Part shown: positions 3,137 to 41,556 of the stretch, in pieces
Layout: every line of letters starts with the position of its first letter
Position numbering within the stretch: the first letter of the stretch is position 1
The notes under the pieces: model-generated
The model's input: only the letters and a program-made list of their open reading frames with translations
Database searches by the model: none
Told to the model about the DNA's origin: nothing
Made by a program: the position numbers and the translations under genes
From: an uncultured delta proteobacterium
GTDB taxonomy: Bacteria; Desulfobacterota; Binatia; UBA9968
DNA length: 64,000 nt
Assembly: GCA_963728565.1 (NCBI GenBank)
Contig: CAVSLC010000004.1
Span: forward strand, 64,001-128,000
Direction: 5' to 3'

Positions 3137-3425
3137 GACGTCTTATTCCGGGCGTGTACGGATTGAATCATTCCCGCCCAAAAGCCTTAGCTCCGGAGCG
3201 GGCGTTGACCCCATTCGCCGAGTTGCGCCAACCTGTCGTGGCTCGAGTTTTGCTATAAATAACAAGCGCTTGCGTTTTCCCGAGCGGATGCTTACATTCG
3301 ACTCTAGCAGATATGCGCCGCCTCCCGCACCTGACCCATCCATTCCAGAACGTTGCCTCCCGGTGATACTCACGCCGAACGTGTTTTCCGTTGTCTTCGG
3401 ACTGAAGATACGGAGGAGAGAATTG

Positions 3426-4745
3426 ATGATCGTCGAAAATCTTTTTTTTGAAGCAGCCGTCATTTTTCTTTTAATTCTGGCCAACGGATTCTTCGCTGCT
3501 TCGGAAATCGCCATGATCGCAATCCGCAAAAGCCGGATCGATACAATGATCGAAAAGGGGGTCAAACGCGCTTTAATTATCGGCCGCCTCAAGAAAGATC
3601 CAGACCGATTTTTGGCCACGGTACAGATCGGGGTTACGATTGTCAGCTCGCTGGCCTCGGCCCTCGGCGGGGCTGCGGCGATCTCATTTGTTAAACCGGC
3701 TATTGAAGCGGCGGCGATTCCGGCCCTCGCCCCTTGGGCCGACGTGATCGCCATCGCAGTGGTAGTTATCCCGATCTCCTACCTTTCGCTGGTATTCGGC
3801 GAATTGGTGCCCAAATCGCTCGCGCTTCGCTTCTCTGAGCAGATCGCATGCATGGCTGCCCGCCCGATCGATCTTTTGTCGCGCCTTAGCTCATTTCTTG
3901 TAAAATTTCTGACCGGGTCCAGCAATGCGGTGCTTCGGTTGTTCGGCGGCTCCGAAGTCGAAGGCGCGAGTTTCATCAGCGTTGAGGAGGTGAAATCTCT
4001 CATTCGTGAAGGAGCGGCGAAAGGTATCTTCAACGAAACTGAGAAAGAGCTGATCCATGGTGTGTTTGAGCTGGCCGACACGCCAGTGAAAGCCGTCATG
4101 GTGCCGCGCACTGAAATTCACGCGCTCGAGATTCACTCCACCCCCAGCGAAGCCGCCGCGAGTTTCATCGAAAGCGGCTTCTCGCGCATCCCTATCTATG
4201 ACGGCGAGCTGGATCATGTGGTCGGGGTTCTTTATAACAAAGATTTCTTTAAGACTCTGCAACAAAAAACCGAGTTTCGGATAAAAGATCACCTGCACCC
4301 GGCATTTTTCGTCCCCAGCACGTTGCCCATAAGCGAGCTGCTCAAGCAGTTGCAACGGCGCCGACTTGCGATGGCGATGGTGGTCAACGAATTCGGCGAG
4401 GTCGAGGGATTGGCGACTCTTGAAGACCTGCTGGAGGAGATCGTCGGCGAAATCCGCGACGAGTATGATCGCGAAGAGCGCGGCCCGGTGGACCGGTTGC
4501 CTGACGGCTCGATGGTGATCCAGGGCTCGGCGCTGCTGAAGGATCTGAAAGCGGACTTCGACCTGCCGTTCGAGGAGTCACCCGATTATCATACGCTTGC
4601 CGGGTTCCTGCTAGCCAGACTAAAACGCATTCCCCGGGGCGGTGAATGGGTCGAAGAAAATGGTTACAAGCTCACTATCGTCGATATGGAAGGAAGGCGC
4701 ATCGTCAAGATAAAACTGGAGCAAAATCCGCACAAGCAACTTTGA
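3426..4745 (+). CDS. HlyC/CorC (CNNM/DUF21-CBS-CorC) family transporter
   Basis: ANGFFAASEIA, FLATVQIGVT, FGELVPKSLA, CBS pair (MVPRTEI, GFSRIPIY, TLEDLLEEIVGEIRDEYD), CorC C-terminal domain. Start moved to ATG 3426 behind GGAGGAG. Confidence 0.92.
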   Translation: MIVENLFFEAAVIFLLILANGFFAASEIAMIAIRKSRIDTMIEKGVKRALIIGRLKKDPDRFLATVQIGVTIVSSLASALGGAAAISFVKPAIEAAAIPALAPWADVIAIAVVVIPISYLSLVFGELVPKSLALRFSEQIACMAARPIDLLSRLSSFLVKFLTGSSNAVLRLFGGSEVEGASFISVEEVKSLIREGAAKGIFNETEKELIHGVFELADTPVKAVMVPRTEIHALEIHSTPSEAAASFIESGFSRIPIYDGELDHVVGVLYNKDFFKTLQQKTEFRIKDHLHPAFFVPSTLPISELLKQLQRRRLAMAMVVNEFGEVEGLATLEDLLEEIVGEIRDEYDREERGPVDRLPDGSMVIQGSALLKDLKADFDLPFEESPDYHTLAGFLLARLKRIPRGGEWVEENGYKLTIVDMEGRRIVKIKLEQNPHKQL

Positions 4746-29069: not shown

Positions 29070-30227
29070 GTGAAAAACGATGAGCTCTCATACAACTTAG
29101 GCGACACCGTCGATCGCCTGATCTCGGTTCAATATTTCATGTCAGGCGGCGGCTCGGCCCTGACCCGCAAGCCGGTAACCGGCGTGCTCTACGAAGCCGC
29201 CCGCGAAAAGGCCGGCGCGCCGCTCTGTCATCTTGCGGCCAAAACGCTTGCGGACAATGTTCAGCGCGGCGACACCGTGCTGATCACCACTGGCCTGATT
29301 GCGCCGCCATACATGATCGCCGAAGGCGACGGCCCGATTGCTGCCGCGACGCTTGCGCGGGCTATCGACGTCGGTCTTGACGCGACTCCGATCATCGTTT
29401 GCGAAGCAGTCGTGGTGAAAGCCATGGAGGCTCTTTGCCAGGCCGCCGGCCTAATGCCAAGCGCTCCCGAGCTGGCGGTCGGAACGCCGAGAAAAGTCAT
29501 CGTTCTGCCGTTTCCTCTCGACGACGACTTGGGGCGGCGCGAGGCGATTCGACTTTTGGATCAGTTCAAACCGAAAGCCGTCGTGGCTATAGAAAAGTTA
29601 TCCAAGAATGTTAAAGGCATTTATCACAATGGCTTCGGCATCGACGTGTCGTCGGTACAAGCAAAAGTGGATTACCTTTTTGACTTCGCGCGCGACCGCG
29701 GCATACCTACGATAGGCGTCGGTGACGGCGGCAACGAAATCGGCACTGCCTGTATCGCCGACGCCGTCCGCAAAGTCGTGCCCACCGGCGCCAAATGCGG
29801 CTGTCCGTGCGAGTCCGGCATCGCCGCCGCGACTCACGCCGACTATTGCGTGTTCGGTTCCAAGTCGAACTATGGCGGCTTCGCCATCGAGGCCTGCCTG
29901 GCCGCGGGACTGGAGCGGCCCGAAATCTTTCACAGCGAAGTTGTCGCTCGGCGCGTACATGAGGCGGGCGCAACCATGGGTCTGGTGGATCCGTTCACCG
30001 GACTCGCGTTCGGTTGGGACGACTTTCCGGTGCACAAAAACGTCAATGAACTTGTCACTAATCTGATTCGCTACATGCTAGCCGTGCGCGTGGTGCCGCG
30101 CTGGTATAAAGATTCGATCATGGGACCGAGCCAGAAGTGGATCCATGAACGCTCGTTCGCCGAAGACTTGGTCTCGCGTTGGGCGAAATCCATCATTGAC
30201 TCGGAAAAAGAATTCTTCCCGAAGTAG
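29070..30227 (+). CDS. D-glutamate cyclase-like (DUF4392) protein
   Basis: VLITTG, EGDGP..AA.LARA, AIEK, TIGVGDGGNEIG, CGCPC, SNYG. Confidence 0.82.
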   Translation: MKNDELSYNLGDTVDRLISVQYFMSGGGSALTRKPVTGVLYEAAREKAGAPLCHLAAKTLADNVQRGDTVLITTGLIAPPYMIAEGDGPIAAATLARAIDVGLDATPIIVCEAVVVKAMEALCQAAGLMPSAPELAVGTPRKVIVLPFPLDDDLGRREAIRLLDQFKPKAVVAIEKLSKNVKGIYHNGFGIDVSSVQAKVDYLFDFARDRGIPTIGVGDGGNEIGTACIADAVRKVVPTGAKCGCPCESGIAAATHADYCVFGSKSNYGGFAIEACLAAGLERPEIFHSEVVARRVHEAGATMGLVDPFTGLAFGWDDFPVHKNVNELVTNLIRYMLAVRVVPRWYKDSIMGPSQKWIHERSFAEDLVSRWAKSIIDSEKEFFPK

Positions 30228-30230
30228 GTT

Positions 30231-31667
30231 ATGACGAAGATCACCGCCGATATCGTTTTTAAGAACGGCTGGGTCGTCACGCCTTCCGGTGTCATCGAGG
30301 GCGGCATTGCCGTCGCCGACGGAAAGATCGCCGCGGTCGGTAGCGATGCGTTTTTGCCGGATGCAGAGCAGATCATCGACTTGGGCGGCAAACATCTTCT
30401 TCCGGGAGTGATCGATCCCGAGTGTCACCTCGGCGGCCATCGCGACCTGGCCGCCGATTTTAAAAGCGAGACACGGGCCGCCGCCGCTACCGGCGTGACG
30501 ACCTGGGGTTTGCAGCTCGTAAGCCTGGCGATCACCGGCGGCGCCGATAAAGTGAAGGGGCCCTCCGATATTCCGAATTTCACGAAATCGATGCCAACTT
30601 TCTACGAGGCGGCGAAAACCGCGGCCATCGATTTCTTTCTGACGCCGATCATCAGTACTGACGAGCAGGTCAAAGAAATCCCCTATCTGGCGAACGAACA
30701 CGGCATCAGCTCCTTCAAGCTCCACTTGCAGATGCAGGGACCGTGGAAGTCCTCATGGCCGGCTTACTTTTTTGACGATGGCAGCATTTACTCGGTCTTT
30801 CAGGAGGTCGCCAAGCTCGGCGCGCCAGCGATCGCGCTGCTTCACTGCGAGAACTGGGAGATCGCCCAGGTGCTGCAGAAGCAGCTGATGGACGCCGGGC
30901 GCAGCGACATGGGCGCCTGGGATGATCGCTCGCCGGCTTTCACCGAGGTCGGTCACGCCCGGACCTACCTTTATTATGCCCGGATCGCCGGCTGTCCAAT
31001 TTACGTCGTGCACTGTACAACGACCGACACCGTCGCGGAAATCGAGAGAGCCAAAGCAGAAGGCTTGACGGTCTATAGCGAAATCGGCACCCACTATCTC
31101 GTGCTGCACAAGGACGCGTGGAAGATCAACGTGCCGCTGCGCGATCGCTCTACACACGAAAGTCTATGGAAGGCGCTCGCGTCCGGCGCCATCGATTGCA
31201 TCGGCAGCGATCACGTCGCGCACACCAGAACCCGCGAGTCCATGCAGACGGGCAACGTCTTTACCACCGTCAGCGGTTTTCCTTCACGGGTGGAAGGGAT
31301 GCTGCCGATGATGCTCAGCGAGGGCGTAAATAAGGATCGAATCTCAATCGAGCGCCTGGCCCAAGTCGCCAGTGAAAATCCAGCGCGCATCTTCGGCCTT
31401 TATCCGAAGAAAGGCGCGATCCTGCCGGGCGCCGATGCGGATCTTGTGGTCGTCGATTTGAAGCGGCGTGCAAAGATCACGAAGGAACTTCTTCACACGG
31501 TGACACCCTGGTCCATCTACGAAGGTTGGGATGTCACCGGCTGGCCGGTTATGACTATCGTCCGAGGTAACATTGTGATGGAATGGCCTGAGGGCGCTCC
31601 TCGCGCCAGGGTCACCGAAACTTCCACGGGCCAGTATCTCAAAAGGCAACTCAGCCGCACAATCTGA
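30231..31667 (+). CDS. Cyclic amidohydrolase (dihydroorotase/allantoinase/hydantoinase family)
   Basis: LPGVIDPECH, SFK (carboxy-Lys position), LHCEN, VVH, IGSDH, NPARIFGLYPKKG.I.PGADADLV. Confidence 0.9.
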   Translation: MTKITADIVFKNGWVVTPSGVIEGGIAVADGKIAAVGSDAFLPDAEQIIDLGGKHLLPGVIDPECHLGGHRDLAADFKSETRAAAATGVTTWGLQLVSLAITGGADKVKGPSDIPNFTKSMPTFYEAAKTAAIDFFLTPIISTDEQVKEIPYLANEHGISSFKLHLQMQGPWKSSWPAYFFDDGSIYSVFQEVAKLGAPAIALLHCENWEIAQVLQKQLMDAGRSDMGAWDDRSPAFTEVGHARTYLYYARIAGCPIYVVHCTTTDTVAEIERAKAEGLTVYSEIGTHYLVLHKDAWKINVPLRDRSTHESLWKALASGAIDCIGSDHVAHTRTRESMQTGNVFTTVSGFPSRVEGMLPMMLSEGVNKDRISIERLAQVASENPARIFGLYPKKGAILPGADADLVVVDLKRRAKITKELLHTVTPWSIYEGWDVTGWPVMTIVRGNIVMEWPEGAPRARVTETSTGQYLKRQLSRTI

Positions 31668-32082: not shown

Positions 32083-33010
32083 ATGCCTCCAGTCATTTCC
32101 ATTTCGAACTTGACCAAGACCTACGCTTCCGGGTACCAGGCGCTGAAGGGTATCGACCTCGAGATCCGCAAGGGTGAAATCTTTGCTCTGTTGGGTCCCA
32201 ACGGCGCCGGCAAAACCACCGTGATCAGCATCATCTGCGGTATCGTGACCCCCACAGAGGGCATCGTTCTCGTGGACGGCCACGACATCGTGCGCGAATA
32301 CCGCGCGGCGCGGACAAAGATCGGCCTGGTGCCGCAGGAGCTGACCACCGACGCGTTCGAGTCGGTATGGGCGACCGTGAGCTTCAGCCGGGGTCTCTTC
32401 GGTCATGCGCCGAACCCGGCTTTTATTGAGCAGGTGCTGCGTGACTTATCTTTGTGGGAAAAGCGCGAAAACAAGATTATGACCTTGTCGGGCGGCATGA
32501 AACGCCGCGTGATGATCGCCAAGGCCCTGTCGCACGAGCCGGAGATTCTTTTCCTCGACGAGCCCACCGCGGGCGTAGACGTCGAGTTGCGCCGCGACAT
32601 GTGGGACGCTGGTGCGAAGCCTGCGGGAAAGCGGCGTCACCATCATCCTGACCACCCACTACATCGATGAGGCCGAGGAGATGGCCGACCGCATCGGGGT
32701 GATCAACAAAGGAGGACTGGTCGTGGTTGAAGACAAGGTCGAGCTGATGAAAAAACTCGGCAAGAAGCAGCTGACCCTGAGCCTCCTCGACCCTTTGCCA
32801 TCGCTTCCGCTGGAATTAAGCGAATGGCCGGTGGCGCTGAAGGACGGCGGGCGCGAGCTGGAATACACTTTCCACGGCAATGAAGAAAGCACTGGAATCC
32901 CGATTCTGCTAAAGCGGCTCGGCGATCTCGGCATCGGCTTCAAGGACCTGAACACGCGGCAGAGCTCGCTCGAGGACATCTTCGTCAGCCTGGTGAGCGA
33001 TCGCAAATGA
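32083..33010 (+). CDS. ABC-2 exporter ATP-binding protein (YadG-like), +1 frameshift near 32605
   Basis: [16 protein letters not shown] and LDEPT lie in ORF 32083; the H-loop ILTTHY lies in ORF 32612. An extra G in ATGTGGGACG joins the two. Confidence 0.9.
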
Positions 33011-34038: not shown

Positions 34039-34434
34039 ATGAAATCATTTTTGGTCGCTTTTCTCGTAATCTTCTTAGCCGCAGTATTCGAAGCTCCCGG
34101 CGTGCGCGGCAACGAATTCAAAGAACGAGAAGCAAAAATCAGCCAGTACAAGCAATGGCTCGATTCTCTCGGCTCTCACGGTTCCCAATATTGGATGCGT
34201 CTCGATGGCAAGCCGCGGCCTCATCGGTTATATTTGGGCGAAGGCTTCTATCGCGCCGACTTTAAAAGCCAAGAGCGTTTCGTCGATACGTTCTCAAATT
34301 ATCTTGCAGGACACCCGGAAAAATTCATGCTTATCGATCTCTTCGATGCGGCCAGCAACAAACCGGTAGGCGAGTATGGATTCGGCGGCTTCAAACTTTA
34401 CACAAAGCCTCTGCAGACCGCCGAGCGTCCTTAA
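34039..34434 (+). CDS. Secreted hypothetical protein
   Basis: GGAGG RBS, signal peptide MKSFLVAFLVIFLAAV, 131 aa; no family recognised. Confidence 0.75.
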   Translation: MKSFLVAFLVIFLAAVFEAPGVRGNEFKEREAKISQYKQWLDSLGSHGSQYWMRLDGKPRPHRLYLGEGFYRADFKSQERFVDTFSNYLAGHPEKFMLIDLFDAASNKPVGEYGFGGFKLYTKPLQTAERP

Positions 34435-34689
34435 GATTATTGCAACCGATAGCTCTATAATCTCCCGCCGACGCCGCTTCCGCTGATGTTGGCCAAGACT
34501 AACGGCGCGGAATCTGCTCGACCTCATGCAAGGTGTCGAGTAAACTTCGACCGCCCGCTGCTACTCGAAGGCGCGCGAGAATTGCTCCAAATCTGCAGCG
34601 AGTTTCGCCAAGTCTGGAGCTTGTAAATCTCCTTCCCGCCGGATAGTTGAGGTTCGTCTCAAGCGCCAATAGCCGGGCACTGGAGGAAG

Positions 34690-36561
34690 ATGATTTCCGC
34701 CGAACAAATTACCCAAGCCTTCGACAGCGCAACGCGGCAATTCCGCCAATCCGACGAGTATCAGGAGCTTGTCGCGGGACGTGCCAGCCCCGAGTCTGCC
34801 CGCGAGTTTTTGCGCAACGTTTTTCGCACCCACTTCCTCTCCTCGCATATCGTTGCCCTGTGCTTCGCATCATTGCCGTCGACGGCGGCCGAGATGTTGA
34901 GAGAAAATCTCCTGGAGGAAATGGGCCGCTCCGACGCCGGAAGGCCGCATTCGGCGCTGCTCCTGGAGCTGGCGCGCGGGGTCGGCTTTGACCAGAGCGA
35001 AATCGACGGGCTGATCGCCGATGCCCGCCGGCGCCTCGCGGTCTTCTGCGCCACTCATGTGCCGGCCTCAACCCTGCGCGAGCTTTGCCTGGCGGTGTTG
35101 CTCGAAACCATGAGCTTCGAGTTCATGCTGTCGCGCTGTTCGAGCGAGATCGCCGCTGCCCTGTCCAGCCGCTTCGGCTTTGCTAAACCGGCCCTGCACT
35201 GGTTTGCGCTCCATTCGGAGGTCGACGTGCGCCACGCCGAAGAGGGGGTGACCATAATCCAGGATTATCTCAGCTTTCACCAGGCACCCGACGATCTCTT
35301 CGAGCAAATCGCGAGTCTGACACTGGGCGATAACATTTTCGCTCGCCACTATTTTCCAGCCGGCTCGAAACAGCGGACCGGCACTCGATCGGTCCCGGCC
35401 AAGGCGCGGCGTATCGAAGCCCTGACCATTTACCGGCTGCGCATCCCGTTTCACCAAACCTTCCGCCATGCGCTGCACAGCCGCGAAGAGAGCGACGCGG
35501 TGATCGTTAAAGTCGTCGACAGCGACGGCCGCCGCGGTTTTGGCGAGAGCTTGCCTCGATCCTATGTCACCGGCGAGACAACCGAATCCATGATCGCGCG
35601 CATTCGCGAGCACCTGGCGCCTCGGGTGTTTTCGCAATCGTTGGCACCGGGCTGGGAAACTTTCGAGTATCTTCAATCCGTCGTGTCCGAATGGACGCGA
35701 CCCGAAGAGCGGCAAAGCAGCATTGCCGCCTGGAACGCCGCCTTTTGCGCCGTCGAGTTGGCATTGCTCGACTGGAGCCTGCGCGCCGATCACTGCGCCT
35801 TGGCCGACTTGCTGCCGCCGACGCGCTACGAAGTTGTCTACAGTGGCGTGATCTCGGCCGATGCACCCGACGACGCGGCCGCTCTCGCCAAGAGAATGGC
35901 CCGGATCGGCATACGCCAGATCAAAGTGAAGGTCGGCACCATTGATGACGCGGCGCGGCTCGAAGCGGTGCGTAAAGCCGTCGGTGTCGAGGTCGAATTG
36001 CGCGCCGACGCCAACGGCGCCTGGAGTGCCGACGAGGCGATCGAACAACTACAACGATTGGCGCGCTTCAAGTTGCAATCGATTGAACAGCCGGTGCGGG
36101 CCGATGATCTGGCAGGAATGAAACGAGCGCGTCAGGAGAGCGGCGTTGCAGTCATGGCCGATGAGTCGCTGGTCACGTTGGATCAGGCGCGCCTCTTGAT
36201 AGAACTCCGCGCTTGCGATTATTTTAACATCCGACTATCCAAGAACGGCGGCATCGGCGCCAGTTTAGCGATCGCCAGATTGGCGCAAGAAGCGGGGGTG
36301 AAAATTCAGGTGGGTGCGCAGGTCGGTGAGACCGGTATTTTGTCGGCCGCAGGGCGCACTTTGGCGGCGTATTTGCCGGCTCTGGCATTTGCCGAAGGCT
36401 CCTTCGGTACCTGGCTGCTCACCGAGGATGTCACATTCGAAAACGTCGCGTTTGGCTTGGGCGGGCGGGCGCCGCTTTTGCACACCCAAGGGCTCAGCGT
36501 CACGGTGAAGGAAGAGGTCCTGGAGCGTCTCGCCGCCGCGAAAATCGAGCTGCGCCGGTAA
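34690..36561 (+). CDS. Fusion of a heme-oxygenase-like diiron (PqqC/CADD-type HDO) domain and an enolase-superfamily (MLE/dipeptide epimerase-like) domain
   Basis: N-terminal domain: ENLLEEMG..PH, SFE, WFALHSEVDVRH. C-terminal domain: GFGESLPRSYVTGET, KVKVG, ADAN, IEQP, MADES, NIRLSKNGG, GAQVGET. One continuous 623-aa frame with GGAGG RBS. Confidence 0.85.
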   Translation: MISAEQITQAFDSATRQFRQSDEYQELVAGRASPESAREFLRNVFRTHFLSSHIVALCFASLPSTAAEMLRENLLEEMGRSDAGRPHSALLLELARGVGFDQSEIDGLIADARRRLAVFCATHVPASTLRELCLAVLLETMSFEFMLSRCSSEIAAALSSRFGFAKPALHWFALHSEVDVRHAEEGVTIIQDYLSFHQAPDDLFEQIASLTLGDNIFARHYFPAGSKQRTGTRSVPAKARRIEALTIYRLRIPFHQTFRHALHSREESDAVIVKVVDSDGRRGFGESLPRSYVTGETTESMIARIREHLAPRVFSQSLAPGWETFEYLQSVVSEWTRPEERQSSIAAWNAAFCAVELALLDWSLRADHCALADLLPPTRYEVVYSGVISADAPDDAAALAKRMARIGIRQIKVKVGTIDDAARLEAVRKAVGVEVELRADANGAWSADEAIEQLQRLARFKLQSIEQPVRADDLAGMKRARQESGVAVMADESLVTLDQARLLIELRACDYFNIRLSKNGGIGASLAIARLAQEAGVKIQVGAQVGETGILSAAGRTLAAYLPALAFAEGSFGTWLLTEDVTFENVAFGLGGRAPLLHTQGLSVTVKEEVLERLAAAKIELRR

Positions 36562-36567
36562 CCCTCT

Positions 36568-38255
36568 ATGCGACTGCTCGTCAAAGCCGCTATGTTCGTA
36601 ATCCGCCGCCAGTGGACACGCTGGCAAAAGCTCACATCCAAGCCCCAGGAAACTCAGGAGCGACTGCTTCTCGATATCATCGAGCGCAATCGCTCCACCC
36701 GCTTCGGCCGCGATCATGGCTTCAAATCGATCGGCTCTCTGCGCGATTATCGCAAGCAAGTGGCGATCGCCGATTACGAGCGTCTGCGTCCGTATGTCGA
36801 GCTCGTTAACAACGCGCGAGCGCGGCGCGCTGACCGCCGAGCCCATCGACATGTTCACGATGACCAGTGGCAGCTACGGGTGATCCCAAGCTGATCCCGG
36901 TAACGGCAAAAACACGAGAGAACCACCGGCAATTGACGCGGCTGTGGTATTACCGCGCGCTCGTAGACCATCCCGATCTCTTCAACGGCAAACTCGTTGG
37001 CGTCGTCAGCCCGGAAGTCGAAGGAGAAACAGCCGGCGGTATTCCATTCGGCGCCGCTTCGGGTTTGATTTACCGGAGCAGCCCGCGTTGGATACAAAAT
37101 GCTTACGCCGTGCCCTACGTGGTTTCCGAGATTAAAGACTTCGAGGCCAAATACTATCTGATCATGCGTCTTGCGCTGGAACAGGATATTTCGTTTTTCG
37201 CCACGCCCAATCCGAGTACGATTTTGAAGCTCGTCCAAAGCGCAAGTCAGAATAAGTACGACATCATCAAGGACATTCATGACGGCACTATCACATCGCG
37301 TTTCGACCTGCCGGCCCAAGTGCGTGCGTCGCTCGCGTCACGGTTGAGAAAAAACCTGCCGCGCGCGCGGCGACTGGAATCTTTAATCAAGCACGACGGA
37401 GCGCTCCGACCCAAAGAGTACTGGCCCCGGCTGCGACTTATCGGTTGCTGGAAGGGGGGCAGCGCCGGAGTGCGACTGAAGGAATTCGCCGGCTGGTTCG
37501 GCAAAACCACACCGGTACGCGATCTCGGTTACATGGCCAGTGAGGCGCAGATGACATTGCCGATATTCGACTCAGGGTCCGCTGGCATTCTCGCGATCGA
37601 TAAAAACTTTTACGAATTCATCCCCGAGTCCGAAATCAATGCGTCTGCGCCAACGATCTTGACATGTTCCGAGCTCGAGGAGGGAAATCTTTATTATATT
37701 ATTCTTACCACACCCGGCGGATTGTACCGCTACGACATCAACGACGTGATTCGCGTCGCTGGATTTTACAACCAAACGCCGCTCCTCGAATTCGTCCGTA
37801 AAGGCCGCGATGTCACCAGCATCACCGGCGAAAAGTTGCACGTCAACCAGTTAATCGGCGCCATGGCGCAGGCGCAAAGAGTTGCCGGCGTGGCGGTGCA
37901 ACATTTTCGCGCTTGCGCCCATGTGGAAAAGTCTCTTTACGTTCTCTCGGTGGAACTGGACGGCGCCATCCCAAGCCGCGAAAGCCTAGTGCAACTGCTG
38001 CATGAACTTGATGCCGGCTTGCGAGAACTCAATGTGGAATATGCGCAAAAACGCGACTCGCAGCGGCTCGGCTCGCCGATCCTTTGCGTGATGAAGCCCG
38101 GTTGGTTCGAGCGCAGAACCCAGATAATTCTCCAGCGCGGCGGGCGCGACACGCAATTTAAAGCGCAGCTTCTGTGCGCCACACCGGAAGACCCGGACGA
38201 GATAGAGTTCATCGTCCAAACCGCAGGCGCAGCGCCAGTAAAAAATCCAGATTGA
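36568..38255 (+). CDS. GH3 family acyl-acid-amido synthetase (two +1 frameshifts near 36815 and 36875)
   Basis: P.ETQERLL, T.FGRDHGF, DYERLRPY; reconstructed MFTMTSGSTGDPKLIP; GYMASE, FYEFIP, GLYRYDINDV, TGEKL, NVEY..KR. Confidence 0.88.
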
Positions 38256-38261
38256 CGCCGC

Positions 38262-38696
38262 ATGCACGGCCGCGCTCTGGCGATTCTGACTCTGCTTTTC
38301 GCGCTTCGCGTCTTGGGCCAAGCTCTGGTGGTATTTTTTTCGGTCGGCTGGCTGCCGCCCGCAGAGCAATGGTTCTCCGGTCTGATCCGCTATCCTATTC
38401 TTCTCGGCATCCAATTGGTTATGCTGGCCTTGATGTTCAAAATCGCAGTCGATATCTGGCGCGGTCGAAGCTTTTTCGCCAAGCCGAGACCTGGCTGTTC
38501 CCGATTCCTGGTCGCCTGCAGCATTTTGTACGCGGTCAGCATGGTGCTGCGCTACGCTTTAACGATGACGTACCGGCCCGAAATGCGCTGGTTCGGCGGC
38601 ACGATCCCGATTTTTTTCCACTTCGTCCTTGCCGCTTTCGTCTACACCTGGGGTAAATTTCATTCACAAAGGGACAAACTTGCAATCGCCCCATAA
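38262..38696 (+). CDS. Four-helix membrane protein of unknown function
   Basis: Four hydrophobic segments, with W.SGLI.YP and GG.IP..FH motifs; starts 6 bp after the GH3 stop. Confidence 0.75.
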   Translation: MHGRALAILTLLFALRVLGQALVVFFSVGWLPPAEQWFSGLIRYPILLGIQLVMLALMFKIAVDIWRGRSFFAKPRPGCSRFLVACSILYAVSMVLRYALTMTYRPEMRWFGGTIPIFFHFVLAAFVYTWGKFHSQRDKLAIAP

Positions 38697-38842
38697 CGGC
38701 AGTTCCACAATCGCACAGGACATGAATGTGACCGTGAGCTCCTTCTGTTTATTTCTATGATAGAACGATCTCTAACGATTTTGGCGCAACCCTCACAAAT
38801 CGAATTAGGGCGCTGACTGATCCGTGACGAGGTGAACTAATC

Positions 38843-39835
38843 ATGGCTGGCACTCCTATTTTCACCGGCGCACAAGCGATCACCCGCCTGCGCGAAACAG
38901 TGCACGGTAACGCCGCGAACTTTTACGCGATGTACTCGAGTGTCCTTGGCGGCATCGTCAACGATCCGGCACTCATGGTGCTGCCGCTCGATGATCACAT
39001 GGTGCACCGCGGTCACGGCGTCTTTGATACCGCTACACTGACGCACGGGATGCTTTATCAACTCGATCGACATTTGGATCGATTGATTCAATCGGCCCAG
39101 GGAGCGCGTATTCCGTTGCCGTTATGTCGCGAGGAACTGCGCCAGATCATTCTCGACACTGCTGCGGCAAGCCGCCAGCGCGATGGATCGGTTCGCTATT
39201 GGCTCTCCGCCGGCCCCGGCGGCTATGGCCTTGGTCCAGCAGAATGTGTTCGCAGTAGTTTTTACGTAATCGTGTTTAAACAGGAAGCTTATCCGGAAAG
39301 CTACTATCATGACGGAATCAAGCTCATAACCAGCAAAGTGCCGATCAAACCGCCGCTTTTTGCCCGCATCAAGTCGACCAATTATCTGCCTAACGTCCTG
39401 GTCCTCTTAGAAGCCAAAGACCAAGGCGCCGACAACGGAATTTTCATCGACGAGCGCGGCATGGTAGCGGAAAGCTCGAATATGAACGTAGCTTTCGTGA
39501 CGCGGGATCGGGTGTTCCGCCATCCGCCCTTTGAAGCGATTCTTTCGGGGATCACGATCCAGAGAGTTCTCGAGTTCGCTACCCTGCTCGTGCAGCAAGG
39601 GATACTGAATGCTATCGACCTCACCGCTATTTCGGTGCAGGAAGGACGCAAAGCGGCGGAAATGATGCTGATCGGCAGCTCGATTAGAGTCGCGCCCGTG
39701 GTCGTATGGGACGGGCAAATAATCGGCGACGGCAAACCCGGACCGATTGCCAAGAAGCTGCTGGAAAGGTGGAATGAAGACACTACCTCTGCGCAGGATC
39801 AGCTCATCATGGTGCCGTACGATCAAGTAAGTTAA
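38843..39835 (+). CDS. Class IV PLP enzyme, plant-type D-amino-acid transaminase / aminodeoxychorismate lyase-like
   Basis: AMYSSVLGGIVNDPALMVLPLDDHMVHRGHGVFDT, IKSTNYLPNV (PLP Lys), ESSNMN, ILSGIT, IGDGKPGP. Confidence 0.88.
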   Translation: MAGTPIFTGAQAITRLRETVHGNAANFYAMYSSVLGGIVNDPALMVLPLDDHMVHRGHGVFDTATLTHGMLYQLDRHLDRLIQSAQGARIPLPLCREELRQIILDTAAASRQRDGSVRYWLSAGPGGYGLGPAECVRSSFYVIVFKQEAYPESYYHDGIKLITSKVPIKPPLFARIKSTNYLPNVLVLLEAKDQGADNGIFIDERGMVAESSNMNVAFVTRDRVFRHPPFEAILSGITIQRVLEFATLLVQQGILNAIDLTAISVQEGRKAAEMMLIGSSIRVAPVVVWDGQIIGDGKPGPIAKKLLERWNEDTTSAQDQLIMVPYDQVS

Positions 39836-40113
39836 AGTGAACCTCGCCTGCTCGCGTTTTACCGTCAGACTACCATCCGAGTAATTTGGCTTCTTGGTTG
39901 GACGCGTGCTAGCCGATGTCATCGGTGCTTGCGCGCGAACCCTATGAACAACTGCGCATCGATGCGCCTGTGACCAATTTTAAGCGCCATCTGCTTGATC
40001 GTGGAGAAATAGAAATCTCCACCGCGGAGCTTACAGTCAGGCCCCACCAGGCGCGTTGATTTTGCGCCCGATGGGGCATGTGTCACTCGGCTACCATGAC
40101 CGAACCGCCTCAG

Positions 40114-41556
40114 TTATTCCCTGGTCGTTAGCCTGGACTGAATTTCAACCTGCTGTTGCTGCAGCGGAAGATTGGCAATCTCGCGCGCTGATCCCGTCAG
40201 CTCCAGGATGTGCAAGCCGGTATTGGCCCGGTCAACAATGTAAATCAGACCGCGATCGTCGACCTCAACATTGTTCGTTTGAATCGCGATCTTACCAGCG
40301 CGCGGGTCGGTATTCGCTGTTGTGGCCGGAACAAAGTACGCGATCTCCTTCGGCTGGAACGGATTGCGGATGTCGACGGCGCGAACCCCTGCGTTGAAGT
40401 AAGCGACGAATAGGATCCGCCCATAATAGATCGGCGTGAAGCTCTCATTCGAGGAGTGCGCGCCGAAGCGCCCGCCACGGCGGCAGAAGACGCCGTCGGG
40501 ATCCGGCACGTGGTAGCTCGAAACCACCTGAGGCGTGGACTCGATAGTGACATCGGCGAAGAAGACCATCTGATGGGATTCTCCGTTGCACTCGTTGGCC
40601 GTCGATTCGTTGACGATCGCTAGGATGTCGCGGGTGCCGCCCACATTGAAGGGCCCGAGATGAGGGATTCGCACGCCGAGTATCGGGAATGTGGTGTGCG
40701 CGCCCACCAGCGGCGACGTATCGAACTGTGCGATGACGGGGAAAGTAAGGTTCTCCGGCGTCGGCTCCGGGGGGCCGGTCAAGAGCTTCGTGCGGTCGGC
40801 GATCTGAACGGTCCCGTTTGAGCTGGTGCCGTGACCGAAATAAACCCGGTGCCCCGCGCTGATCGCGCCGTGCAAATCCGTCGGAACGTCGCCCGTCGAA
40901 CCCGGTTCTTGACCTACCAGACCGTAGTCACGGATGTGAACCGGCGACCTCGGATTACTCAAATCAAACACCTGGGTCATGCGGTCGGTGCGCCATCCAG
41001 GCACGCCCGAGACCAGGTACGCAATGCCGGTATCACACTCCCACCAGTTTTTATGTGTTCCCTCGAGTCCGGATACCACCGTGGTCCGGAGCACTGGCGA
41101 GCTTGGATTTCTGACATCATAAATTTGATGGGCTTCATTGCCGTGCGCCCTTAGCAGGAACACTCCCTCCACATCCGCAGAGGTGACGCCGGGCAAATCC
41201 GTGCCATTGCACACCCGCACCATCTGCGCGCCGCCCGCCTCACCCGCTCCGCTGGGACCCGGGATGTGATGGAGATAAACGGGATTACGGGGATCGGTGA
41301 CGTCGACAATAGATACGCCGTTGTTCTCCACAGCGTTGGTCAGCGGATTAAAGGCCGAGCCGCCGTGGTGCCCAATATAGGCGATCCATCGGCTGCCCTG
41401 CTGATGGATTATCGGCTGATAGGCGGAACGGGCTTGAAGAGTGTTGTGGCCCAGGAGCGCCATATTATTGGAATCGGATGGATGCTGCGCCTCCACATGC
41501 CCACTGCTCAAGCTCACTGATATGATCATAATTAGTAGGAGTATCAACTTTTTCAT
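40114..41556 (-). CDS. Secreted LVIVD-repeat beta-propeller protein
   Basis: Signal peptide; repeated D[VLI][TRS][DN]P units (IVDVTDP, IYDVRNP, VFDLSNP, AVDIRNP); YFNAGVR; NNVEVDDRGLIY. Confidence 0.82.
   Translation of the reverse strand: MKKLILLLIMIISVSLSSGHVEAQHPSDSNNMALLGHNTLQARSAYQPIIHQQGSRWIAYIGHHGGSAFNPLTNAVENNGVSIVDVTDPRNPVYLHHIPGPSGAGEAGGAQMVRVCNGTDLPGVTSADVEGVFLLRAHGNEAHQIYDVRNPSSPVLRTTVVSGLEGTHKNWWECDTGIAYLVSGVPGWRTDRMTQVFDLSNPRSPVHIRDYGLVGQEPGSTGDVPTDLHGAISAGHRVYFGHGTSSNGTVQIADRTKLLTGPPEPTPENLTFPVIAQFDTSPLVGAHTTFPILGVRIPHLGPFNVGGTRDILAIVNESTANECNGESHQMVFFADVTIESTPQVVSSYHVPDPDGVFCRRGGRFGAHSSNESFTPIYYGRILFVAYFNAGVRAVDIRNPFQPKEIAYFVPATTANTDPRAGKIAIQTNNVEVDDRGLIYIVDRANTGLHILELTGSAREIANLPLQQQQVEIQSRLTTRE

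Follow-up and report, generated by a model that had tools for sequence, protein, structure and literature searches.

A conserved fusion of a diiron oxygenase domain to an enolase-type domain

What reaction would call for an oxygenase and an enolase-type enzyme to be made as one polypeptide? The question is raised by a gene for a 623-residue protein in a 64,000-nucleotide stretch of DNA (the window: positions 64,001 to 128,000 of contig CAVSLC010000004.1, assembly GCA_963728565.1) from an uncultured delta proteobacterium of the Binatia (Desulfobacterota; UBA9968), whose metagenome-assembled genome (MAG) comprises 4.53 Mb in 28 contigs and is 80.6% complete. A reading of the letters alone (hereafter the original prediction) had proposed that this gene joins a heme-oxygenase-like diiron oxygenase (HDO) domain to an MLE-subgroup enolase domain with arginine at the position of the second catalytic lysine. 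We find that the protein combines in fused form two members of a widespread cassette composed of an HDO, an Arg-type enolase and a GH3 ligase, with or without a small membrane protein. We lean slightly towards the general view that the cassette couples an oxygenase to a one-base enolase within a GH3 conjugate pathway.

Both domains lie in a single frame, with a GGAGG motif a few bases 5' of the ATG (Table 1). Pfam placed Haem_oxygenas_2 (PF14518, "iron-containing redox enzyme") at residues 38-203 (E 2.3e-16, above cut-off), MR_MLE_N at residues 253-375 and MR_MLE_C at residues 396-610 (E 6.2e-48). The full-length AlphaFold2 model, built on a 42-row alignment, reached a mean predicted local distance difference test (pLDDT) of 89.6 and a predicted template modelling score of 0.85; its sole weak stretch was the linker, which forms the block of lowest confidence (pLDDT ~60, residues 231-240) and is also the least conserved part of the alignment of fused homologs (A2). 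Contigs from four independent public soil or sediment runs (X1, X2, X4 and X6) covered positions 35200-36682 with no indel reported. Those of X4 (35242-35497) and X6 (35200-36482) spanned the linker completely, with more than 31 letters to spare on either side, and those of X1 and X2 covered it with one shorter flank. The original prediction had named in-frame sequence data across the linker as a check on the fusion, and the X4 and X6 contigs supply them.

Full-length homologs are common. Among the matches listed, all 120 of 120 fused homologs are 619-640 residues long, carry PF14518 and PF13378 and show 73-96% identity. In species-representative genomes, 22 of 30 loci matched the HDO part, 20 of the 22 covering nearly the whole protein, and the MAGs concerned are mostly labelled Binatia or "delta proteobacterium". 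A second fused lineage (P0135, a cluster of five members) was found at 44% identity. The fusion is therefore genuine and conserved, as both the full-length homologs and the indel-free contigs attest, and homologs are not always encoded by two genes, the outcome that was to have overturned the original prediction: they occur both fused and split. The physical joining of HDO and enolase points to a specific two-step reaction.

Table 1. Coordinates in the window of the fusion gene, its domains and candidate catalytic codons, and the genes downstream of it.
Feature	Position	Strand	Description and basis
Fusion gene	34690..36561	+	623 aa; HDO domain and MLE-subgroup enolase domain in one frame
HDO (heme-oxygenase-like diiron) domain	34690..35358	+	Residues 1-223; Pfam and Foldseek
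Candidate HDO ligand codons, first group	E76/E77 34915-34920; H87 34948-34950; E144 35119-35121	+	Alignment
Candidate HDO ligand codons, second group	H175 35212-35214; D179 35224-35226; H182 35233-35235	+	Alignment
Inter-domain linker AGSKQRTGTRSVPAKA	35359..35406	+	Residues 224-239
MLE-subgroup enolase domain	35407..36561	+	Residues 240-623 and stop codon; Pfam, Foldseek and PDB alignments
Enolase KxK (K412/K414)	35923-35931	+	Alignments to 1jpm, 3jva and 2p88
Enolase metal ligands	D440 36007-36009; E466 36085-36087; D491 36160-36162	+	Alignments to 1jpm, 3jva and 2p88
Arg515 in place of the strand-6 Lys; K518 next	Codon 36232-36234	+	HMMER alignments and profile
GH3 acyl-acid amido synthetase gene	36568..38255	+	Starts 7 nt after the fusion gene; Pfam GH3, GH3_M and GH3_C on both pieces
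Predicted membrane protein, four transmembrane segments (4-TM)	38262..38696	+	144 aa; 7 nt after GH3; no Pfam family
Class IV aminotransferase (BCAT/D-amino-acid transaminase-like)	38843..39835	+	Pfam PF01063; all NCBIfam hits below cut-off

The N-terminal domain is an HDO distinct from CADD

With O2 and a dimetal centre, HDOs catalyse hydroxylation, desaturation, N-oxygenation or C-C cleavage. When the N-terminal domain was modelled alone by AlphaFold2 it reached a pLDDT of 93.5, and its best Foldseek matches were the HDOs CADD, HrmI, UndA, FlcD, RohS and BesC, followed by PqqC/TenA proteins, such that the top ten were all HDOs or heme-oxygenase-like proteins. This model and these matches, together with PF14518, bear out the HDO fold that had been predicted. 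In an alignment of ten fused homologs (44-96% identity), the candidate ligand residues E76, E77, H87, E139, E144, H175, D179 and H182 were invariant in 10 of 10, including every member of the proposed ligand set (E76/E77, H87, E144, H175, D179 and H182), and in the split forms the ligand-type residues were invariant or nearly so. Judged from this alignment, the domain appears to display the HDO pattern of three histidine and at least three carboxylate ligands on the core helices.

The subfamily to which this domain belongs is small, with 108 clusters at E<=1e-3 among 1.84 billion representatives, mostly standalone proteins of ~230 residues; the only label returned by a look-up of the standalone clusters was "PqqC", which is automatic. 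Two unusual architectures were each seen in a single metagenomic cluster. P0187 joins an enoyl-CoA hydratase (crotonase) domain to the same type of HDO, and P0195 joins the first two thirds of an HDO to the last two thirds of a GH3 protein and may be a deletion or a chimera. The source genome (G000) holds two more weak HDO-like matches, at C18:73871-74374 (E 1e-7) and C13:162153-162776 (E 5e-5).

CADD is the best match of the N-terminal domain in both sequence and fold (TM-score 0.68-0.76), which raises the possibility of a CADD-like self-sacrificing or cofactor-forming protein of para-aminobenzoate (pABA)/folate synthesis, with the nearby class IV aminotransferase, which has sub-threshold hits to PabC models, as a partner resembling aminodeoxychorismate lyase. 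The sacrificial tyrosine of CADD is Tyr27 (PMC9522330). The domain studied here scored 25 bits against the CADD model TIGR04305, whose cut-off is 200, its structural alignments show 16-18% identity, and the HMMER alignment spans residues 72-194 only. Its N-terminal helices appear to lack a conserved tyrosine: Y24, the only one in residues 1-60, is F or I in two fused homologs. Only 4 of 22 related loci have the aminotransferase close to the cassette and none of the 80 split loci described below does, and the conserved partners are an enolase and a GH3 ligase rather than folate genes. We therefore agree with the earlier view that this is not a CADD ortholog and hold a role in pABA or folate synthesis to be highly improbable.

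An arginine replaces the strand-6 lysine of the enolase domain

Enolase-superfamily enzymes act by removing the proton alpha to a carboxylate bound to Mg, and racemases and epimerases of the MLE subgroup need two lysines on opposite faces of the substrate. Foldseek returned 2p88, 3q45 and 1jpm as top hits of the enolase part, which superposes on the N-succinyl Arg/Lys racemase 2p88, on dipeptide epimerases and on N-acylamino-acid racemases (TM-score ~0.9 on the target). The KxK motif on strand 2 and the D/E/D ligands on strands 3-5 that characterize the MLE subgroup (epimerases/racemases, OSBS and MLE) are present and align to 1jpm, 3jva and 2p88, whereas the lysine that should end strand 6 is replaced by Arg515. 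HMMER placed the query segment "dyfnirlsknggi" over "dlinikLmkaggi" of the L-Ala-D/L-Glu epimerase 1jpm, and Arg515 likewise fell on the strand-6 lysine of 3jva and 2p88. In a profile of 26 split-form enolases, this column holds lysine in 5 of the 5 best solved structures. K412, K414, D440, E466, D491, R515 and K518 were all invariant in the ten fused homologs. The alignments thus confirm the original prediction in every detail of what it had observed, from the fusion itself to the MLE-type barrel with KxK and D/E/D and the arginine at the second catalytic lysine.

The arginine marks a separate clade. A quick maximum-likelihood tree set 61 Arg-group rows apart from 6 Lys-type rows with a support of 100 and grouped the 15 fused enolase rows in one clade (SH-aLRT 97). 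The automatic names of database homologs are "muconate cycloisomerase" and "L-Ala-D/L-Glu epimerase", and all NCBIfam equivalog scores of the domain are far below cut-off. The Lys-to-Arg change identifies a misannotated enolase-type clade to which the functions of those families should not be transferred.

With the strand-6 lysine fixed as arginine, single-base chemistry, that is elimination or isomerisation, is the simplest reading, and one-base catalysis would fit the presence of arginine throughout the family. The domain might instead still be an epimerase or racemase of N-acyl amino acids or dipeptides, with Arg515 or K518 as the second base and the HDO as an independent tailoring oxygenase. 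Its best sequence and fold matches are such enzymes, all the other catalytic residues are kept, and a lysine stands three residues past the arginine in all members. Against this, the arginine is fixed throughout the clade (10 of 10 fused enolases, 50 of 50 split ones), compared with lysine in the five best solved relatives and in 10 of 10 enolases unlinked to GH3, and coupled steps are favoured by the constant association with an oxygenase and by the interface predicted between HDO and enolase (see below). We consider retained epimerisation quite improbable.

The fusion is one form of an oxygenase-enolase-GH3 cassette

The gene for a GH3 ligase directly follows the fusion gene in 18 of 18 fused loci having at least 1 kb downstream, and the 4-TM protein comes after GH3 in 16 of the 17 fused loci that have enough flank. 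When metagenomes were scanned with five standalone HDO members (5-row alignment), 80 loci of the split form were returned. HDO and enolase were separate open reading frames (ORFs) in 69 of the 69 that hold both, the enolase followed the HDO in 64 of 66 with at least 300 nt downstream, and GH3 followed in 44 of 45. The strand-6 motif FN[VIL]R[VIL]SKCGG, with its arginine, was found in each of the 50 split enolases that reach this strand. The 4-TM protein was present in 18 of 32 split loci with flank. Its homologs in the ESM Atlas all belong to hypothetical clusters, none of them named. These partners did not figure in the original prediction, and their conservation recasts the function as the chemistry of acyl-amino-acid conjugates.

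The distribution of the cassette is patchy, as of an accessory trait. Within the source class the HDO was found in 7 of 251 sampled genomes: five, all of the source family, encode open frames of 628-679 residues, and two from other families carry the split cassette with Arg-type enolase and GH3. In a quick tree of the HDO, four standalone proteins fell within a clade of 16 fused ones, so that at least two fusion or fission events would be needed.

No further enzyme recurred among the neighbours of the split loci. The commonest were a divergent sigma-54 activator (15 loci) and a GntR regulator (9 loci), with one representative of each assigned by Pfam. The class IV aminotransferase was considered as a core member of the cassette and rejected on the counts given above; it is a lineage-specific neighbour. 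In one low-GC split cassette (L061), a gene of the leucine-carboxyl-methyltransferase family (PF04072, 10579-11490) comes after GH3, which hints at a product that keeps a free, methylatable carboxylate.

Arg-type enolases lie beside GH3 genes in another phylum

A Thermoanaerobaculia MAG (L022) carries a standalone Arg-type enolase clustered with GH3 and no HDO; from our reading of its ORFs, the cluster also holds an ATP-grasp-like ORF, an aminotransferase, an SDR and an alpha/beta-hydrolase. A search of 301 genomes of this phylum gave 20 enolase hits. Seven were Arg-type, with GH3 within 1.5 kb in five, at 2.8 kb in one and the last cut by a contig end. Ten were Lys-type, with GH3 nearby in 0 of 10. 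The remaining three have another motif or none, and one of them (L116) adjoins GH3.

Two loci of this phylum place a membrane hydroxylase where the HDO would stand. In L136 the gene order is FA_hydroxylase, enolase, GH3. In L138 a 452-residue protein (3267-4625) lies directly upstream of the Arg-type enolase and GH3; its first ~140 residues are homologous to the 144-residue membrane protein of the source (35% identity, E 3e-14), and the C-terminal rest is an FA_hydroxylase domain. Because L138 fuses a homolog of the small membrane protein to FA_hydroxylase, this protein seems to belong to the oxygenase step. The oxygenase slot thus appears interchangeable: a membrane FA_hydroxylase or a membrane-domain::FA_hydroxylase fusion can occupy it, which argues for an oxygenation step coupled to the enolase. 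Other loci of the phylum carry alpha/beta-hydrolase/DUF362 genes, protein kinases or a sigma-54 activator.

Split HDO and enolase proteins are predicted to form a complex

Complex prediction was carried out on the split HDO/enolase pair of L061 with 26-row alignments of our own and three controls. The pair obtained an ipSAE of 0.70 (0.60, 0.73 and 0.70 in the individual runs) as against 0.00 for all three controls. Of 157 solved complexes, 116 reach this mark, as do 2 of 215 mismatched pairs; the counts hold only roughly here, own alignments having been used. At least 95% of the contacts agreed between runs and the pLDDT of the partners was at least 87. We know of no solved HDO-enolase complex, and the high score is therefore unlikely to reflect a memorised structure. 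The predicted interface comprises the C-terminal helices of the HDO and the N-terminal strand of the enolase, an arrangement that fits the short linker of the fused form. The prediction supports the view that the split HDO and enolase bind each other, and adjacency, fusion and the modelled complex together suggest that an intermediate may be channelled between them.

A proposed reaction sequence and its alternatives

GH3 enzymes adenylate a carboxylic acid and then transfer it to an amino acid. We propose that the GH3 ligase of the cassette would first couple a carboxylic acid, probably a fatty acid, to an amino acid at the expense of ATP. The HDO domain, with two metal ions bound, would then activate O2 and oxidise the conjugate, our preference being for a hydroxylation of the beta-carbon of the amino-acid moiety or of a nearby position. 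The enolase domain would hold the free alpha-carboxylate via Mg2+ (D440/E466/D491), the strand-2 lysine K414 would take the alpha-proton, and Arg515 would steady the enediolate or the leaving group instead of serving as a second base. The outcome would be an elimination or isomerisation, for instance dehydration to a dehydro-amino-acid conjugate, and not an epimerisation. The oxidised intermediate would be handed from one active site to the other within the fusion or, in other bacteria, within a two-protein complex.

Parts of this scheme deserve different degrees of confidence. That the protein is a bifunctional enzyme which cooperates with GH3, and probably also with the small membrane protein, in producing a chemically edited acyl-amino-acid conjugate seems to us evenly balanced. 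The specific order of ligation, oxidation of the amino-acid part and enolase-catalysed elimination is tentative, and on present evidence doubtful. Two precedents speak for the general scheme: the bacterial GH3 enzyme OlsH makes an N-acyl ornithine from a free fatty acid and ATP (PMC12493201), and the HDO MboA oxidises the product of amide ligases (PMC13185094).

The main alternative is that the acid might be tailored before ligation, with a UndA-like HDO hydroxylating C3 of a free fatty acid, the Arg-type enolase dehydrating the product to a 2-enoic acid or isomerising it, and GH3 ligating last. The fold matches of the N-terminal domain include the fatty-acid HDO UndA, whose structure was solved with beta-hydroxydodecanoate. 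Membrane FA_hydroxylases can take the place of the HDO, and OlsH accepts free fatty acids (PMC12493201). The order oxygenase-enolase-GH3 is identical in the fused, split and FA_hydroxylase versions, and P0187 fuses the same type of HDO to a crotonase, likewise a (de)hydratase fold that forms enolates. A shared gene order carries little weight, however, P0187 is a single metagenomic protein, and the substrates of the closest solved and characterised relatives of the enolase domain are N-acyl amino acids or dipeptides rather than plain fatty acids, which counts in favour of ligation first. We judge tailoring of the free acid unlikely.

Several further observations weigh against the coupled scheme with ligation first. 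In the most distant standalone HDO members (alignment A3: P0168, P0171, P0179, P0185 and P0193), His87 and/or the HxxxDxxH motif is lost, and these proteins probably do not bind metal. Three split loci depart from the pattern: L090 has an HDO with flank and no enolase, L106 has no enolase and GH3 directly after the HDO, and L093 has a truncated enolase and no GH3. The 4-TM protein is absent from 14 of the 32 split loci with flank. Arginine is able to act as a general base in some enzymes, so that epimerisation keeps a small probability. The cassette would moreover be broken in this strain if the insertions in its GH3 gene described below were real.

A more specific possibility, which we advance with little confidence, is that the cassette carries out a hitherto unrecognised kind of desaturation of a lipid-like amino-acid conjugate, independent of CoA and acyl carrier protein (ACP), by diiron hydroxylation followed by a coupled single-base (Lys/Arg) dehydratase of the enolase superfamily. 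If so, dehydro- or enoyl-type N-acyl amino acids would represent a new class of bacterial membrane or signalling lipids, and the Arg-type enolases a new functional subgroup of their superfamily, with obligatory GH3 pairing and interchangeable oxygenases (soluble HDO or membrane His-box hydroxylase).

Relation to known systems

Dipeptide epimerases and N-succinyl or N-acyl amino acid racemases of the MLE subgroup, such as B. subtilis YkfB (1jpm) and the B. cereus N-succinyl Arg/Lys racemase (2p88), share the fold of the enolase domain (TM-score 0.88-0.92 on the target, ~27-28% identity), KxK and the D/E/D Mg ligands, with "DES" as third ligand. The Arg-type clade differs from them in the strand-6 residue, in being fused or adjacent to an oxygenase and in its linkage to GH3. 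With CADD, UndA, HrmI, RohS, FlcD and BesC the N-terminal domain shares the seven-helix heme-oxygenase-like fold and the His/carboxylate motif (E..H, E, HxxxDxxH) at only 14-18% identity, and differs from them in its fusion to an enolase domain. Both HDOs and enolase-superfamily enzymes are models of how one scaffold evolves new chemistry.

SznF, in which an HDO is joined to a cupin domain, offers a precedent for a fused catalytic domain that processes what its HDO partner produces (PMC7848743); the partner domain here is an enolase-superfamily barrel instead of a cupin. Of the traits specific to N-oxygenases that could be looked for in the sequence, none was seen. The GH3-dependent OlsH/OlsI ornithine-lipid pathway of Singulisphaera acidiphila (PMC12493201) resembles the cassette in that its GH3 enzyme OlsH uses ATP and a free acid to build an N-acyl amino acid and is encoded in an operon with tailoring enzymes. 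The partners there are an alpha/beta-hydrolase and a methyltransferase, as opposed to an HDO and an enolase, and the GH3 protein of the window scored 61.7 bits against the OlsH model NF052613, far from its cut-off of 620. In the mangotoxin cluster, the HDO MboA stands beside amide-forming ATP-grasp ligases and oxidises the C-terminal residue of the ligase product; that cluster has a dedicated flavin/Fe2S2 reductase and no enolase partner (PMC13185094), whereas the cassette has a GH3 ligase and no counterpart of the reductase.

No publication linking HDOs to enolase-superfamily or GH3 proteins, and none on members of the fused/standalone HDO subfamily, was found in the literature searched, which lay outside subscription journals and preprint supplements; a 2026 mini-review of HDOs (PMC13108848) does not mention fusions, enolase or racemase. 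The GH3 linkage extends recent evidence that N-acyl amino acids are products of bacterial GH3 enzymes, and the cassette suggests that abundant uncultured soil bacteria produce lipid-like metabolites as yet undescribed. The fused protein offers a convenient single target for expression, spectroscopy and structure work.

Frameshifts in the assembly and neighbouring genes

Two 1-nt insertions (~36816/36817 and 36875) relative to L001, L003 and L006 spread the GH3 gene over three frames in this assembly. The letter at 36875 is missing from every X2 and X6 contig that covers the site, and at 36816/36817 one letter is missing at each place from both X6 contigs and one X2 contig. This comparison relies on X2 and X6, whose contigs represent related strains and not necessarily the same strain, X1 and X4 having little or no cover at either site. 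An ABC transporter ATPase (32083-33010) is likewise split into two overlapping ORFs in different frames and is a single frame in L001, L006 and L021, likely a second frameshift within 5 kb. Because contigs of related strains lack the extra letters, a second gene is broken and completeness is low for 28 contigs, an assembly error is likelier than a strain-specific pseudogene.

A promoter and terminator scan of positions 34300-40200 gave counts no different from those of shuffled sequences. Just upstream of the fusion gene, positions 34039-34434 encode a 131-residue protein of no Pfam or NCBIfam family, kept only in the closest relatives (L001, L002, L006 and L021), whose N-terminus looks by eye hydrophobic and signal-peptide-like. 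Farther upstream, at 29070-31667, a D-glutamate cyclase-like gene (PF14336) is followed 4 nt on by an amidohydrolase gene; the pair is kept upstream in L001, L006 and L021 and may constitute a separate small pathway.

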